From a virus (Duplodnaviria > Heunggongvirae > Uroviricota > Caudoviricetes): a stretch of 4,470 nt of DNA. The notes under the pieces are model-generated. The model did no database searches, was not told the origin of the DNA, and saw nothing but the letters and a program-made list of their open reading frames with translations. Below are positions 1-4,470 of this stretch, piece by piece. Position numbers and translations under genes: made by a program. Location of the stretch: IMG/VR virus record IMGVR_UViG_2698536618_000013; one strand, given 5' to 3'. Within the stretch, counting starts at the first letter, position 1. The number at the start of each line of letters is the position of its first letter.

Positions 1-421
1 TCCAGTCCAGAATACGCAGTTCTTTGATCTGCCCCCGGGAGTTACGGATTTTCAGCACCACCGTATTGCCGTGACGCAGTTTGGCGTTCAGCCACAGTTC
101 AAAAAACTGGATACGATTCTGCTGGGCATTGGGACGACGACAGAGGCGGGCAATATCTCCCCGGCGCGTTTCCCTGCGTATCCCCTGCGCATCCGTCTGC
201 ATAAGACGCAGCCGCATTTTGGCGATATCCTGGGATATCAGCGAAATACATGCAAACACCGCATGAAAGGAGAGGACAGCTTCCGGATCGGCTTTCACGG
301 CCTGCTGCCAGGCGCCGGAAAAGGGCTCAGCCACCGCCTGAAACAGGCTGGTCCAGCCCGCCTCTTTTACATCACGTCCTGATTTCTGGTTTTTTCGGGT
401 TCGTCGCAAAAAGTTCCACAT
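1..421 (-). CDS. Phage portal protein (HK97-type / Phage_portal-like), N-terminal ~140 aa; 3' end runs off the window start
   Basis: Hand translation of the minus strand from ATG at 421..419 gives MWNFLRRTRKNQKSGRDVKEAGWTSLFQAVAEPFSGAWQQAVKADPEAVLSFHAVFACISLISQDIAKMRLRLMQTDAQGIRRETRRGDIARLCRRPNAQQNRIQFFELWLNAKLRHGNTVVLKIRNSRGQIKELRILDW, open to position 1. Not in the ORF track because there is no stop inside the window. An in-frame TAG lies two codons upstream of the ATG, and GGAG sits 8 nt upstream. The pattern (M-x-FxRR start, AV.AC[IV]..IS..IA, RRPN....F.E, GN...I.N..G.I..L) matches my recollection of portal N-termini; this is recognition from memory, not a search. Confidence 0.6.
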   Translation of the reverse strand, partial: MWNFLRRTRKNQKSGRDVKEAGWTSLFQAVAEPFSGAWQQAVKADPEAVLSFHAVFACISLISQDIAKMRLRLMQTDAQGIRRETRRGDIARLCRRPNAQQNRIQFFELWLNAKLRHGNTVVLKIRNSRGQIKELRILDW

Positions 422-632
422 TCGCTATGCTCCGCATCATGTTTCTTTTTCTGACCCGCCGGACGTCGCGCTGTGATGTACTCCGCCTTCATCAGGCGAA
501 CCAGCACCTCCGCACACGGCTGTGCGACATCCCGGATATCCCCGGGCCGGGCATCATGTGTACCCTGCAGATATCGGATTTTTGCCATCAGTTACTGCGG
601 GACGCTCTCACCTCCCGCCCTCCTCATCAGAC

Positions 633-2570
633 TCAGCCGCCGGACGCACTGCCGTAGTTCACACCGGTGATCACAGCCACCGCCGCAGTACGGCGACGAC
701 GCCAGTTGATCCAGCGCTCCGCACGGATGGCCACGCTGCCGGTCTGGAACATGGAAACCAGCTCCACCGGCGACGGTGTGGTGCTGTCGCCGCCCGGCTC
801 AGACTGCATTTCCAGTGACGCTTCACGGGACATATCCACTGCCACACCGCCGTCATCCGCCAGATAAATATCCGGTGCATTCACCAGTACCAGCTGGTCA
901 CCCACATACTGGGAGACAATCACCGGAAGCCCCTGAAAGATCCCGCCCAGCAGGGTCATGTCCGGATATTCCTTCTGACCCAGCGCATTTTTACGCATGG
1001 ACAGCGCCAGGGCATTCGTGCTGGACATCAGCCAGACAGCACCAGTGGGCTGCAGATTTGCCGTCACAAACTGGCCAAACGCGGCCTCGGCATCCGCATC
1101 CGGGTTACCGGTTGATGCCGTGCCCTTCACATCATGGGTGATGGACGCCGGGGAGACATCCGCCACCGCAGCTTTTTTCGGGTCCACAAAGTCTGTGTCC
1201 AGACGCGCCACCACCGCTTCTGCCAGCGCATTACGGACCAGTGCATCAGCTGCCGGACTGGAAAAACGGATCAATTCTTCCGTCAGTACCGCAATGGCCG
1301 ACACCTTCGCATGACTGAAGGTGATGGATTCAAAATCAAACTTCGTCAGGGGTTTTGCCTTACCCTCCCCCACCCAGCCGGCAGCACCGCCGGACACCTG
1401 GGCATGCACGCGGATATTGAACGGCACCTGACGAAGAGCAGGGATCCCGCCCTGACCAAATCGCCCGATAATGGTCTGAGGACGCAGGTAATCAATAAAG
1501 TCCTGTGCGTATTCCTGATATTCAGACAGGCTGCCTGCCCACTGTGGGTCCGTGGTGGTCCCTGCCCCCACCGCCGATTTCAGGACATGATGCAGACGGC
1601 TGTCATCCGGATACTGACGACGGGCCACTTCCAGGGCTTCAGAGCGGACACCTTTAGCCGCGGCCAGTGATTTGGCAAAGCGGGCGAAACCAATCCCCTT
1701 CTCCAGTTTCTGCTCAACACGGATCACCGGCGCTGAAGCCACCGTGGCCACATTCCCGTTACCGGCCTGTTTCACCGGCTGTGCCGTGGCGGCCTTACTG
1801 GTTTCCAGTTCACGCAGACGCTTCAGGTGCGCATCCACCTGACGGATTTCCGCTGCGGTGTTGTCGTAGTGCTCTTCCTCTTCCACATCCAGTGTGCGGC
1901 CTTCCTCTGCGGCTTTGTTCATGATCTCCTCAAGGGAGGCTGCCAGCGCCGCACGCTTGTTTTCAAAACTTTTAATCTGTTCACCAGTATTCATTGCTGA
2001 CTTTTCCTTATGAAAAGAGGTTATTGACTGTGCCGAAGCGCCGGCAGAAGATGCGATTTTCACCACCGGTTTCCGGTTGCCGGACGCGGCAGAAAACGGG
2101 CGGTCGAAATATTTAATGGTCCGGATGGTGCATTCCGCATTCGCGGGCACGGTGACGGCAGACACCTCCATCAGCTCCCAGCGCAGAAAATGCAGTCCGC
2201 CTCCGTCCAGATAAGTGTATTCATGGGGCCGGAAGCCCACAGAAAGCCCCCTGACCAGCCCGGTCTTAATGGCAGCCCAGGCCTCATCCAGCCGGGCTGC
2301 CATCTGGGAGGGCATCCCCGGATCCGGCTTCACCAGCATTGCCGTGATTTCCAGCCCTTCGCTGACCCGGCGTACCGTACACTGCCCCACCGGGCGGGAA
2401 TGGTCATGCTGCCAGAGAAACGGGATCGCACTGCCAAACTCCGCGCCCTCCGGCTCCAGGATGTCACCATCCCGATCCGGAGAAGGCGTTGACGCAATCC
2501 CGGTGATCACCCGTTCATCCTCACTGAAGGATTTCACCGTCAGCAGGGAACAGGCCCGTTTAAGAGTCAC
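633..2570 (-). CDS. Prohead protease (HK97 / peptidase S78-U35 type) – delta (scaffold-like coiled coil) – HK97-fold major capsid protein, single fused polypeptide (~645 aa)
   Basis: ORF track 633..2609 (658 aa). The N-terminal ~160 aa carry protease-like motifs FLWQHDHS (His 55/57) and GLSVGF (Ser 110). A coiled-coil-like segment follows (EQIKSFENKRAALAASLEEIMNKAAEEGRTLDVEEEEHYDNTAAEIRQVDAHLKRLRELE). The C-terminal ~370 aa look like a capsid shell domain (FDFESITFSHAKVSAIAVLTEELIRFSSPAADALVRNALAEAVVARLDTDFVD, ending ...VAIRAERWINW...). I place the start at GTG 2570..2568, 5 nt after AGGAGG (plus-strand CCTCCT 2576..2581), by exact nucleotide identity with the start region of the upstream paralog. 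The track's ATG at 2609 lies inside the paralog's coding sequence, has no ribosome-binding site and would translate through the AGGAGG. Stop TGA at 635..633. Confidence 0.85.
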   Translation of the reverse strand: MTLKRACSLLTVKSFSEDERVITGIASTPSPDRDGDILEPEGAEFGSAIPFLWQHDHSRPVGQCTVRRVSEGLEITAMLVKPDPGMPSQMAARLDEAWAAIKTGLVRGLSVGFRPHEYTYLDGGGLHFLRWELMEVSAVTVPANAECTIRTIKYFDRPFSAASGNRKPVVKIASSAGASAQSITSFHKEKSAMNTGEQIKSFENKRAALAASLEEIMNKAAEEGRTLDVEEEEHYDNTAAEIRQVDAHLKRLRELETSKAATAQPVKQAGNGNVATVASAPVIRVEQKLEKGIGFARFAKSLAAAKGVRSEALEVARRQYPDDSRLHHVLKSAVGAGTTTDPQWAGSLSEYQEYAQDFIDYLRPQTIIGRFGQGGIPALRQVPFNIRVHAQVSGGAAGWVGEGKAKPLTKFDFESITFSHAKVSAIAVLTEELIRFSSPAADALVRNALAEAVVARLDTDFVDPKKAAVADVSPASITHDVKGTASTGNPDADAEAAFGQFVTANLQPTGAVWLMSSTNALALSMRKNALGQKEYPDMTLLGGIFQGLPVIVSQYVGDQLVLVNAPDIYLADDGGVAVDMSREASLEMQSEPGGDSTTPSPVELVSMFQTGSVAIRAERWINWRRRRTAAVAVITGVNYGSASGG

Positions 2571-2598
2571 ATCAGCCTCCTGAAAATAAAAAAACCGC
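1746..2598. repeat. Tandem direct repeat, copy A (853 bp): covers the 5' ~825 nt of the protease–capsid fusion gene plus its AGGAGG site and upstream T-run
   Basis: By-eye alignment with 2602..3454 at a constant offset of 856 nt. 2339..2598 is identical to 3195..3454 (260 bp); 1746..2338 versus 2602..3194 shows roughly 40-45 substitutions and no indels (~93% identity, hand count). Confidence 0.95.
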
Positions 2599-3426
2599 AA
2601 AGGCCACATTCCCGTTACCGGCCTGTTTCACCGGCTGCGCCGTGGCGGCCTTACCGGCTTCCAGTTCACGCAGGCGCTTCAGGTGCGCATCCACCTGACG
2701 GATTTCCGCTGCGGTGTTGTCGTAATGCTCTTCCTCCTCCACATCCAGCGTGCGCCCTTCCTCTGCGGCTTTGGTCATGACCTCCTCAAGGGAGGCTGCC
2801 AGCGCTGCACGCTTGTTTTCAAAACTTTTAATCTGTTCGCCAATATTCATTATGGTCTTTTCCTTATGAAAAACGGTTGTTGACTGTGCCGCAGCGCCGG
2901 CAGAAGATGCGATTTTCACCACCGGTTTCCGGTTGCCGGACGCGGCAGAAAACGGGCGGTCGTAAGATTTAATGGTCCGGATGGTGCATTCCGCATTCGC
3001 GGGCACGGTGACGGCAGACACCTCCATCAGTTCCCAGCGCAGAAAATGCAGTCCGCCTCCGTCCAGAAAGGTGTATTCATGGGGACGGAAGCCCACGGAC
3101 AGCCCCCTGACCAGCCCGGTCTTAATGGCCGCCCAGACCTCATCCAGCCGGGCAGCCAGTTGCGACGGCATATCCGGTACGGGCTTCACCAGTGTTGCCG
3201 TGATTTCCAGCCCTTCGCTGACCCGGCGTACCGTACACTGCCCCACCGGGCGGGAATGGTCATGCTGCCAGAGAAACGGGATCGCACTGCCAAACTCCGC
3301 GCCCTCCGGCTCCAGGATGTCACCATCCCGATCCGGAGAAGGCGTTGACGCAATCCCGGTGATCACCCGTTCATCCTCACTGAAGGATTTCACCGTCAGC
3401 AGGGAACAGGCCCGTTTAAGAGTCAC
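2572..3426 (-). CDS. Prohead protease + delta/scaffold domain protein (284 aa); truncated tandem paralog of the protease–capsid fusion, lacking the capsid shell domain
   Basis: ORF track 2572..3426. GTG start at 3426..3424, 5 nt after AGGAGG (plus-strand CCTCCT 3432..3437). Residues 1-77 are nucleotide-identical to the fusion gene; both catalytic motifs (WQHDHS, GLSVGF) are intact. The ORF runs through the coiled-coil region to ...QAGNGNVA, then reads 9 junction-derived codons (FAVFLFSGG) and stops at TGA 2574..2572, one nt before the fusion's GTG start. Expression is not proven. Confidence 0.7.
   Translation of the reverse strand: MTLKRACSLLTVKSFSEDERVITGIASTPSPDRDGDILEPEGAEFGSAIPFLWQHDHSRPVGQCTVRRVSEGLEITATLVKPVPDMPSQLAARLDEVWAAIKTGLVRGLSVGFRPHEYTFLDGGGLHFLRWELMEVSAVTVPANAECTIRTIKSYDRPFSAASGNRKPVVKIASSAGAAAQSTTVFHKEKTIMNIGEQIKSFENKRAALAASLEEVMTKAAEEGRTLDVEEEEHYDNTAAEIRQVDAHLKRLRELEAGKAATAQPVKQAGNGNVAFAVFLFSGG
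2576..2581 (-). promoter_or_regulatory. Shine-Dalgarno AGGAGG for the protease–capsid fusion gene; it overlaps the last codons of the upstream paralog
   Basis: Plus-strand CCTCCT at 2576..2581, 5-nt spacer to GTG 2570. The paralog's TGA stop (2574..2572) sits inside that spacer. Confidence 0.7.
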
Positions 3427-3454
3427 ATCAGCCTCCTGAAAATAAAAAAACCGC
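2602..3454. repeat. Tandem direct repeat, copy B (853 bp): contains the 284-aa protease/scaffold paralog and its ribosome-binding site
   Basis: Same alignment as copy A. The copies are head to tail, separated by 3 nt (AAA, 2599..2601). Flanking unique sequence is accGTG|GCCACATT on the left (about 1741..1753) and AAACCGC|CGGAGCGG on the right (about 3448..3462). Confidence 0.95.
3432..3437 (-). promoter_or_regulatory. Shine-Dalgarno AGGAGG for the 284-aa protease/scaffold gene
   Basis: Plus-strand CCTCCT at 3432..3437 is AGGAGG on the minus strand, with a 5-nt spacer (CTGAT) to GTG 3426. Confidence 0.7.
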
Positions 3455-3464
3455 CGGAGCGGTT
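3438..3464 (-). terminator. Candidate intrinsic terminator or attenuator between the terminase and protease genes
   Basis: The minus strand reads AACCGC-TCCG-GCGGTT (6-bp stem with 4 GC pairs, 4-nt loop; plus-strand 3449..3464) followed directly by TTTTTTTATTTT, then AGGAGG and the GTG start. The stem is short, so this may be only a partial terminator. Confidence 0.4.
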
Positions 3465-3489
3465 CGTGATGGTTACAGTGTGAACAGGG

Positions 3490-4470
3490 TTATATGAAAA
3501 AAACCGCATATTCTTTCTTTTTCGGTTCCGGGTTAAGGGACATCAGGGAGACCGCATTGAACAGCGCCATCAGCGGGTCAATTTTTCCCCGTCCACTGGC
3601 CTGTTTGGTGATAAGAATGGCGTTACCTTTAGGCTCCACCCGGGCATTGCCGACACACCAGGCCATCAGGGGCTGGTCACCATGCACCAGCACCCCTTCA
3701 GCCAGTTTGCGCTCGGTGGTTTTAATGGCCCCGCCCAGTTTCCAGCCCTGGCTTATCCCCACCACAATTCCGTCGGGGATCCCGGCTTCCGCCAGTGAAT
3801 CCAGAATCTGCCCCACCCCTGACGGGTCAATACCGATATGGTCCAGTAACTCAGCCTCATGAATGCGACGCACATATTCCGCCACTTCCGCCGTGTCATC
3901 CCCGACACGCCGGACAATGGTCATATCTCCACAGGCAACAAGATCCTGAAACCGGGACGCCTCGCTCTTCCGTCGGACCACCGCGGTTTCATGCGCCCAG
4001 GCATGGCCCCAGCCCAGCCATTCGCGGGTCTCCCGGTCACGCCCAATCACATACATCCCCAGCAGATCATCCAGCCCTCCGCCGTCAATCCCCACCGTCA
4101 CCACATCAGCACGACGCAGGATATCGTCCAGGCTGATACAACGGCCCTGCTCTTCCCAGAAATCAGCCCCCGCCCAGCGGTCAGAGCGCAGGGCAAGACC
4201 AATTTCCACATTGGCGTGTTTTGACATGAACCCCCGGAATGTCTCTTCACCGGCTTCCCGGGCTTTACGGTACTCCCGGTACAGAAAGGCCTCATCCACC
4301 GAATAACCGAGATTCGGGTTAACCATGGCGAGATTTTCCATCAGCAGGTGAGCCCCGCTTTCCACCATTTCAGGAGGATGCTCAAAAATCACCGGCAGAA
4401 AGTGCGGATCATGAATTTTGCCGTCACGGACATCCCGGGCGTACTGCAGTTTCTGTCTGAACACCCCGGC
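3490..4470 (-). CDS. terL: Phage terminase large subunit, C-terminal (nuclease) portion; 5' end lies beyond the window end
   Basis: ORF track 3490..4464 (324 aa); the frame stays open to position 4470, so the track's GTG start is an artefact of the window edge. Motifs VTVGIDGGGLDDLLGMYVIGRDRE, IGIDPSGVGQILDSLAEAG and GNARVEPKGNAILITKQASGRGKIDPLMALFNAVSLM resemble the C-terminal nuclease region of Terminase_1-type large terminases, from memory. Stop TAA at 3492..3490. Confidence 0.8.
   Translation of the reverse strand, partial: AGVFRQKLQYARDVRDGKIHDPHFLPVIFEHPPEMVESGAHLLMENLAMVNPNLGYSVDEAFLYREYRKAREAGEETFRGFMSKHANVEIGLALRSDRWAGADFWEEQGRCISLDDILRRADVVTVGIDGGGLDDLLGMYVIGRDRETREWLGWGHAWAHETAVVRRKSEASRFQDLVACGDMTIVRRVGDDTAEVAEYVRRIHEAELLDHIGIDPSGVGQILDSLAEAGIPDGIVVGISQGWKLGGAIKTTERKLAEGVLVHGDQPLMAWCVGNARVEPKGNAILITKQASGRGKIDPLMALFNAVSLMSLNPEPKKKEYAVFFI

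Follow-up and report, generated by a model that had tools for sequence, protein, structure and literature searches.

The window considered here, meaning the whole 4470-bp stretch that was analyzed, is the complete contig CYGF01000095.1 of the Escherichia coli draft assembly GCA_001285485.1 and ends inside the gene for the large terminase (TerL) on one side and inside a portal gene on the other. All genes in its list of open reading frames (ORFs) lie on the minus strand (Table 1). Profile searches assign the terminase ORF to PF20441 (TerL_nuclease, E 3.5e-10) and phrog_2699 (E 1e-111), and 325 of its 326 residues are identical to residues 228-553 of the TerL of phage YYZ-2008. The portal ORF matches PF04860 (Phage_portal, E 6.8e-18) and phrog_2271 (E 2e-90) and is identical to the YYZ-2008 portal at 135 of 140 residues. 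Compared with solved structures, a relative's full-length portal hits portal chains, with 9lbn as the best (E 4e-29), 8cez/8fql next (E 1.7e-20), and 6tba, "Phage portal protein, HK97 family," also found (E 1.3e-11). Between the capsid and portal genes lies a conserved 73-aa ORF, whose product is labeled hypothetical in the annotation of every relative. A Pfam search gave no match for it, and its AlphaFold model, a single helix with a mean pLDDT of 52, is unusable.

Table 1. Features of the 4470-bp window, listed in the direction of the genes
Feature	Coordinates	Strand	Remarks
TerL C-terminus, 326 codons, nuclease domain	3490..4470	-	Runs off contig end; stop at 3490
Terminator-like hairpin, GAACCGC-TCCG-GCGGTTT plus T-run	3448..3465	-	Consensus scan; within the TerL-protease spacer
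Duplication, proximal copy B	2602..3454	-	Copy alignment; allele b of the protease-scaffold region
Protease-scaffold ORF, 284 aa	2572..3426	-	GTG start at 3426; encoded by copy B
Duplication junction, 3 nt (TTT on the gene strand)	2599..2601	-	In neither allele; between ...GGAATGTGGCC and GCGGTTTTTTTATTTTC...
Duplication, distal copy A	1746..2598	-	Copy alignment; allele a, 5' part of the intact fusion gene
S78 prohead protease, scaffold-like coiled-coil and HK97-fold major capsid fusion, 645 aa	633..2570	-	GTG start at 2570
Internal Shine-Dalgarno-like AAGGA (2009-2005) and in-frame ATG (1994-1992, Met193)	1992..2009	-	Inside the fusion gene
Small ORF, 73 aa	367..588	-	Between capsid and portal genes; 55-nt overlap with portal start; phrog_829, E 2e-36
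HK97-family portal, N-terminal 140 codons	1..421	-	ATG at 421; runs off contig end

The fusion gene has an open frame of 658 aa (633-2609); translation from the GTG at 2570, the start annotated in relatives, gives the 645-aa product. The open frame matches both PF04586 (Peptidase_S78) and PF05065 (Phage_capsid), along with phrog_617 at E 2e-258. The 645-aa protein is an exact match to WP_053892878.1, "phage major capsid protein [Escherichia coli]," and is the same coding sequence as YYZ_gp52. Upstream of it, an 856-bp tandem duplication supplies the 284-aa ORF, which matches PF04586 (E 4e-9) and positions 7-264 of the 626 in phrog_617. This ORF consists of native residues 1-275, comprising the S78 protease and the scaffold-like coiled-coil, followed by nine junction-derived residues (FAVFLFSGG), and it stops 1 nt before the start codon of the fusion gene. 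PF04586, PF05065, PF04860, and PF20441 each score above their curated cut-offs. The components of an HK97-like head module are represented in the window: S78 protease, HK97-fold capsid, HK97-family portal, and large terminase.

The spacer between the terminase and the first protease start measures 63 nt (3427-3489). Within it, just upstream of an AGGAGG ribosome-binding site, lies the terminator-like hairpin, whose sequence is conserved in relatives. Across the window, the number of terminator-like sites found by the scan equals the shuffle expectation, and a promoter scan returned no promoter-like site.

In HK97 and lambda, the portal gene comes directly after the terminase gene and before the protease and capsid genes. 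The window resembles these systems in its S78-type protease, its HK97-fold capsid with an N-terminal scaffold-like segment, and its PF04860 portal, and the module as known from relatives also places an HNH gene near TerL. It differs from them in that the canonical order of terminase, portal, protease, and capsid is not followed, the portal gene instead lying downstream of the capsid gene, and in that protease and capsid share one gene. A sequence-only reading of this stretch had reported this departure, describing a terminase, protease-capsid, portal succession with no portal adjoining the terminase. Its coordinates hold, including the short gap between the terminase stop at 3490 and the protease start at 3426 and the portal start at 421 downstream of the capsid, and Pfam and PHROG confirm the gene identities. 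Two details can be added to that reading: the protease start at 3426 belongs to the shortened copy created by the tandem duplication, not to the full protease-capsid gene, and the 73-aa ORF intervenes between capsid and portal.

Without its duplicated unit, the window is 96-97.5% identical at the nucleotide level, with 100% coverage, to the head module of the Stx phages 1717, YYZ-2008, and 2851. These long-tailed phages belong to Pankowvirus and, together with many E. coli prophages, have the same gene order, 645-aa fusion, spacers, and overlaps, but neither the 856-bp duplication nor the extra 284-aa ORF. The module occurs with the same annotated order in 93 phage records and in 1255 of 5426 complete E. 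coli genomes. Likewise, the order TerL, protease/capsid, small ORF, portal was found in all 80 IMG/VR loci, four of which are only 74-77% identical at the amino acid level. The sequence-only reading had called the order noncanonical, naming a shared order among close relatives as one of the observations that would count against this. This shared order is what synteny comparison with the nearest relatives revealed, and the arrangement is thus routine for the clade.

In YYZ-2008, the upstream and head genes run holin, lysozyme, spanin, HNH, TerS, TerL, major capsid protein, hypothetical protein, and portal, and the genes downstream of the portal are Ad1, head closure, gp10, tail terminator, major tail, and tape measure. 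Full flanks are available for 26 loci, of which 24 have tail genes downstream and 25 have HNH upstream. Our literature search found neither the gene order nor the fusion of protease and capsid discussed in any paper on the Pankowvirus-type clade.

The same order extends to distant relatives. Two examples are Burkholderia phage vB_FUBS1 (39% identity) and contig L088, which encodes a protease identical to one named in Acinetobacter towneri. Their genes run TerS, TerL, protease, capsid, small ORF, portal, and connector, and the capsid is 40% identical to that of the E. coli fusion. Both carry a small ORF at the position of the 73-aa ORF, and BLASTP of the latter against the small ORF of vB_FUBS1 detected no similarity. 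Unlike the clade of the window, however, they have separate protease and capsid genes, and their portals, of 444-470 aa, are not followed by a 407-aa ORF. As a separate observation on portal annotation, a G5/G6 polymorphism where the portal meets the next ORF in the relatives of the window splits or fuses an "861-aa portal" and decides whether 454 or 861 aa is annotated.

Comparison with vB_FUBS1 also bears on the internal ribosome-binding-site-like sequence and ATG of the fusion gene. In that phage the capsid has a gene of its own, whose start lines up with Met193 of the fusion, and the pair AAGG(A) plus ATG is present in 85 of 85 gene copies, including the relatives at 74-77% identity in which the linker peptide differs. 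Copy B of the duplication holds the same AAGGA and ATG, with the ATG at 2850-2848. The fusion has retained this older ribosome-binding site with its ATG inside the gene, and the Met193 codon may serve as a translation start. In the nested protease and scaffold genes of lambda (C/Nu3) and herpesviruses (UL26/UL26.5), a long protease product and a commoner short product from an internal start set the stoichiometry. Such genes offer a possible analogy only; the shorter product here would be a scaffold-capsid protein rather than scaffold alone.

We interpret the window as part of the late (head) operon of an E. coli lambdoid prophage of the Pankowvirus type, with a gene order that is an old lineage trait, a reading to which we assign a probability of about 0.95. 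Of the three origins proposed by the sequence-only reading, a lineage-specific arrangement is the correct one, as close relatives all share the order; it is neither a recent rearrangement nor a satellite signature. The source element itself could be what remains of a degraded prophage; pseudogenes are found in many chromosomal copies of the module.

A second proposal, that the window represents the compact capsid module of a cfPICI, a satellite whose heads are self-made and whose tails come from a helper phage, is very improbable. Such islands are common in Enterobacteriaceae and encode HNH, TerS, TerL, protease, capsid, portal, and head-tail adaptors of their own (PMC10085698), and the window, being a whole contig, comes without flanks. 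The window does have its own capsid, protease, portal, and TerL genes, but this is true of any phage. By definition, cfPICIs lack tail and holin genes; they carry an integrase, a regulator, and a primase and measure ∼14 kb (PMC10085698). In contrast, in relatives that are 96-97% identical at the nucleotide level, the module is flanked by holin, lysozyme, and spanin genes upstream and by a complete tail module downstream. These relatives are inducible, long-tailed, lysogenizing phages (PMC12029490); the Pankowvirus phage phiSTEC799-Stx2c, for instance, has a prolate head and a 155-nm noncontractile tail and lysogenizes MG1655 (PMC12029490). With lysis genes upstream, tail genes downstream, and one member forming infectious long-tailed virions, the relatives are full phages, not satellites.

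There is next to no chance that the order is a product of the 856-bp duplication, through movement of the protease-capsid region next to the terminase or displacement of the portal: the duplication does sit exactly at the TerL-protease boundary, but the order is independent of it, since the order is retained in all relatives although none has the duplication (their matches cover 3614 bp, or 4470 minus 856), its junction is in none of the 5426 complete E. coli genomes (120-nt megablast), and the distant relatives vB_FUBS1 and L088 share the order as well.

The fixed order of the lineage is HNH, TerS, TerL, protease/capsid, small ORF, portal, head-tail adaptors, and tail genes, all transcribed one way within the late transcript. 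Where the portal gene lies has no known mechanistic consequence, as the proteins act in trans. Following the HK97 paradigm, the portal would nucleate a procapsid built of the protease-scaffold-capsid polyprotein, whose N-terminal S78 protease and coiled-coil scaffold segment would face inward and be cleaved off, and TerS, TerL, and HNH would cut and package the DNA.

The duplication is private to this contig and joins two natural alleles. Copy B is 100% identical over positions 2602-3201 to an allele found in 926 E. coli records, and copy A is 99.8% identical over positions 1746-2345 to an allele found in 229. Over their first 260 nt, the two copies do not differ from each other and carry a minor haplotype (four of 85 loci). 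Searches of GTDB genomes, IMG/VR, and JGI metagenomes for the exact 32-nt junction pattern gave no match, and a natural allele that has TTTGCGGT7 ahead of the gene start was found neither in IMG/VR nor among 73 loci. Exact look-up returned no record of either the 284-aa or the 658-aa ORF, only the 645-aa protein being on record, and the 284-aa product is missing from a collection of 15 billion proteins. A homologue search with the 284-aa ORF yielded no full-length counterpart, only fragments at contig ends and natural protease or protease-scaffold genes.

It is an even bet that this tandem repeat is an assembly artefact, in which the alleles of two co-resident prophages were misjoined head to tail in a short-read draft contig. 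Such an origin would fit a stand-alone contig that ends inside multi-copy prophage genes. Single genomes, PV15-279 among them, contain both alleles a and b, each in a different prophage, and both breakpoints fall at, or ≤3 nt from, allele-polymorphic sites, where assembly graphs branch; the absence of the junction and of the 284-aa product elsewhere, as well as the shared haplotype of the first 260 nt, point the same way. However, the two sides of the junction have no k-mer in common and are separated by three untemplated bases, which neither a de Bruijn misjoin nor read-based gap filling would produce, and both alleles are correctly phased over ∼600 nt. Moreover, real illegitimate rearrangements within the fusion gene, including IS1 insertions and chimeric fusion proteins, are known in E. 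coli prophages. A genuine chimeric duplication, formed by illegitimate joining of two prophage alleles, is a reading to which we give somewhat less than even odds.

If the duplication is real, it would have several implications. First, it would place a free-standing allele-b protease-scaffold gene directly upstream of, and translationally coupled to, an intact allele-a fusion. Second, it would represent a naturally occurring intermediate between the fused and the split states of the protease and capsid genes, both of which are seen in relatives, in the history of their fusion and fission. Finally, it would show, as an experiment of nature, what additional protease-scaffold does to the assembly of prolate heads.

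The gene order that drew attention to this locus is already known, having been present for years in annotated public genomes of Stx-converting phages, and is carried by about a quarter of complete E. coli genomes. The finding as originally stated is ordinary and carries little weight, since this is the normal layout of very common, already sequenced E. coli lambdoid phages. The conserved internal start, the G5/G6 tract, and the possible chimeric duplication offer modest leads for the study of head assembly and for the annotation of E. coli prophages. More broadly, HK97-type head modules have at least one widespread alternative order, TerL, protease, capsid, small ORF, portal, that spans Escherichia, Acinetobacter-type, and Burkholderia phages. 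Thus, a portal gene missing from beside the terminase is no evidence of a satellite or of a rearrangement.

All long ORFs with protein-family support in the window lie on the minus strand, and profile matches (Pfam, PHROG) agree on the terminase, protease–capsid and portal identities of their products. The order terminase, protease/capsid, portal, which the sequence-only reading had put forward as non-canonical, is thus confirmed by ORFs and profile matches, and the coordinates on which that reading relied (terminase stop at 3490, protease start at 3426, portal start at 421) are exact. By comparison with HK97 and lambda, this order is indeed unusual, but it is ordinary within its own clade. 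Synteny with the nearest relatives shows it to be routine there, an observation that the same reading had named among those that would refute it. Because close relatives routinely share the order, the finding is explained: it is the standard, already annotated arrangement in a lineage of E. coli phages that is very common, correctly seen but ordinary.

Features of the head module and of the portal tract of its relatives
Feature	Position	Strand	Match or content
Large terminase, C-terminal 326 codons	3490-4470	minus	PF20441; phrog_2699, E 1e-111
TerL-protease spacer, 63 nt		minus	terminator-like hairpin and AGGAGG ribosome-binding site
284-aa ORF	2572-3426	minus	Peptidase_S78 domain
645-aa gene, GTG start	633-2570	minus	Peptidase_S78 and Phage_capsid (PF05065); phrog_617, E 2e-258
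73-aa ORF (hypothetical protein)	367-588	minus	phrog_829
Portal, first 140 codons	1-421	minus	PF04860 above cut-off; phrog_2271, E 2e-90
Copy B of duplication	3454 down to 2602	minus	
Junction filler	2601-2599	minus	TTT, in no allele
Copy A of duplication	2598 down to 1746	minus	
Internal Shine-Dalgarno-like AAGGA and in-frame ATG (Met193)	1992-2009 and 2848-2865	minus	
Portal homopolymer, outside window	L001 (YYZ-2008) 15050-15080; L002/L003 about 300-330; L004		ATGTTCA-G(n)-ATACTGAGAAAATGAC

Several comparisons document how widespread this arrangement is. By megablast, 93 phage records match the window over its full length except for 856 bp, at 95–97% identity; Stx2-converting phage 1717, Enterobacteria phage YYZ-2008 (genus Pankowvirus) and phage 2851 are among them. 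Matches also occur in 1255 of 5426 complete E. coli genomes, with up to 7 copies each. The YYZ-2008 annotation runs holin, lysozyme, spanin, HNH, TerS, TerL, major capsid (645 aa), hypothetical (73 aa) and portal, followed by adaptor Ad1, head closure, gp10-like, tail terminator, major tail and tape measure, and then by minor tail proteins and the host-specificity protein. When gene order was scored by tblastn in 80 IMG/VR loci, every locus with the genes, including four at only 74–77% identity, had TerS, TerL, protease–capsid, 73-aa ORF, portal and adaptor in this order. Of the 26 loci whose 6-kb flanks are complete, 24 carry the tail terminator and major tail genes downstream, and 25 carry HNH upstream. 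More distantly, Burkholderia phage vB_FUBS1 has TerS, TerL, protease, capsid, a 58-aa ORF, a 444-aa portal and a connector, with protease and capsid as separate genes. They are also separate in contig L088, where HNH, TerS, TerL, a 202-aa protease, a 442-aa capsid, a 55-aa ORF and a 470-aa portal precede connector, head-closure, gp10-like and tail tube genes; a protease named in Acinetobacter towneri has the same sequence as that of L088.

The conserved 73-aa ORF, sited between capsid and portal, shares 55 nt with the beginning of the portal gene. Its position, reminiscent of that of lambda gpW upstream of the portal gene, is matched by the small ORFs of vB_FUBS1 and L088, to which no sequence similarity was detectable; a Pfam search with it gave no match, and its AlphaFold model was unusable. 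The terminator-like hairpin (3448-3465) and the T7 run that follows it separate the TerL stop from the protease ribosome-binding site and are kept in relatives, with a single C/G polymorphism in the loop; the duplicated copy of the hairpin lost the 5′ arm at the junction. Outside the window, the YYZ-2008 "portal" is annotated as 861 aa, whereas 3 of 3 chromosomal copies are flagged "frameshifted" (PGAP), and the two versions differ by a G6 versus a G5 run. The G5 form (31 occurrences, against 22 of G6, among the loci compared) gives a portal of 454 aa, followed after 8 nt by the start of a 407-aa ORF that lacks any recognisable domain. In the 74–77% relatives the 454-aa-type and 407-aa-type parts are in different frames. 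The polymorphism could reflect slippage, programmed frameshifting or a sequencing-error hot spot.

What sets the window apart is its 856-bp tandem duplication, whose unit extends from 28 nt upstream of the GTG start to codon 275. Copy B, the proximal unit, encodes the protease and coiled-coil scaffold segment followed by nine junction-derived residues, and a single nucleotide separates the stop of its ORF from the start codon of the intact gene, whose 5′ part is the distal copy A. The first 260 nt of the two copies are identical and the rest differ by ∼8%. Copy B is 100% identical to allele "b", present in 926 E. coli records, and copy A is 99.8% identical to allele "a", present in 229; separate prophages of one genome can hold both (e.g., O157:H7 PV15-279). 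Judged from sequence comparison, the duplication is chimeric rather than old and diverged, its diverged parts being two natural alleles. Its junction occurs in none of the 5426 complete E. coli genomes, two copies of the unit in none of the 80 IMG/VR loci, and an exact junction match nowhere in the GTDB, IMG/VR and JGI collections; the match of every relative, in phage records and E. coli genomes alike, spans 3614 bp.

An assembly artefact and a real event are about equally likely origins of this duplication. In favour of an artefact, it comes from a short draft contig that stands alone, the 260 nt common to both copies are a minor haplotype (4/85 loci), and the breakpoints, at GTGGCC before A/G and GCT[C/G]CG before GCGG, both fall at or within 3 nt of allele-polymorphic sites, which are places where assembly graphs branch. 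However, the two junction sides have no k-mer in common, neither of them templates the TTT filler, and real illegitimate rearrangements, such as IS1 insertions and chimeric proteins, are known in the protease–capsid gene.

By exact-protein match, the window corresponds to the full length of contig CYGF01000095.1 (4470 bp), part of E. coli draft assembly GCA_001285485.1; the capsid protein it encodes has the accession WP_053892878.1, "phage major capsid protein [Escherichia coli]". At either end the contig breaks off within a multi-copy prophage gene. Similarly short contigs (3.5–4.5 kb) are the source of many members of this capsid protein's cluster, so the head module is a typical repeat-bounded fragment of short-read E. 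coli assemblies. In resident prophages the protease–capsid gene is often disrupted (entries H66-H69, on E. coli chromosomes; P0042, P0047, P0116): in some cases an IS1 insertion separates an "HK97 family prohead protease" part from a "major capsid protein" part, and in others its N-terminus is fused, in a chimeric ORF, to minor tail protein L or to lysozyme domains.

Two further explanations of the gene order had been offered. The first, a satellite or capsid-forming island, would fit cfPICIs, phage satellites with capsid, portal and terminase genes and an integrase-regulator-primase module but without tail or holin genes (PMC10085698). In contrast, in near-identical relatives of the window the head module is directly preceded by lysis genes and followed by a complete set of tail genes. 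Moreover, the Pankowvirus phage phiSTEC799-Stx2c, when induced, displayed a prolate head (about 43 × 86 nm) with a non-contractile tail 155 nm long, and it formed lysogens of MG1655 (PMC12029490). Given these genes and virions, the satellite reading is not supported, a judgment drawn from the flanks of relatives, the window being a contig without flanks. The second, a rearrangement tied to the duplication, fails because no relative has the duplication and all show the same gene order, which is therefore independent of it.

The domain content of the head module and its co-linear late-operon context are directly observed. By analogy with HK97, the portal would nucleate a procapsid made of the protease-scaffold-capsid polyprotein, the N-terminal protease and scaffold segment would end up inside and then be removed by autoproteolysis, and DNA would be packaged by TerS, TerL and HNH. 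Within the E. coli fusion, Met193 aligns with the start of the separate vB_FUBS1 capsid gene. AAGG(A) lies 9–10 nt upstream of the in-frame Met193 ATG in 85 of 85 gene copies, and both elements are kept in the 74–77% relatives despite a different linker peptide, the motif there being in a different codon phase. In vB_FUBS1, AAGGA overlaps the protease stop codon (TAAGGA), which suggests that the fusion arose by stop-codon loss and that internal initiation at Met193 may still yield protease-free scaffold–capsid subunits. Lambda and herpesviruses have nested protease/scaffold genes, to which this putative internal start would be analogous. Such a start would bear on the stoichiometry of protease versus scaffold–capsid.
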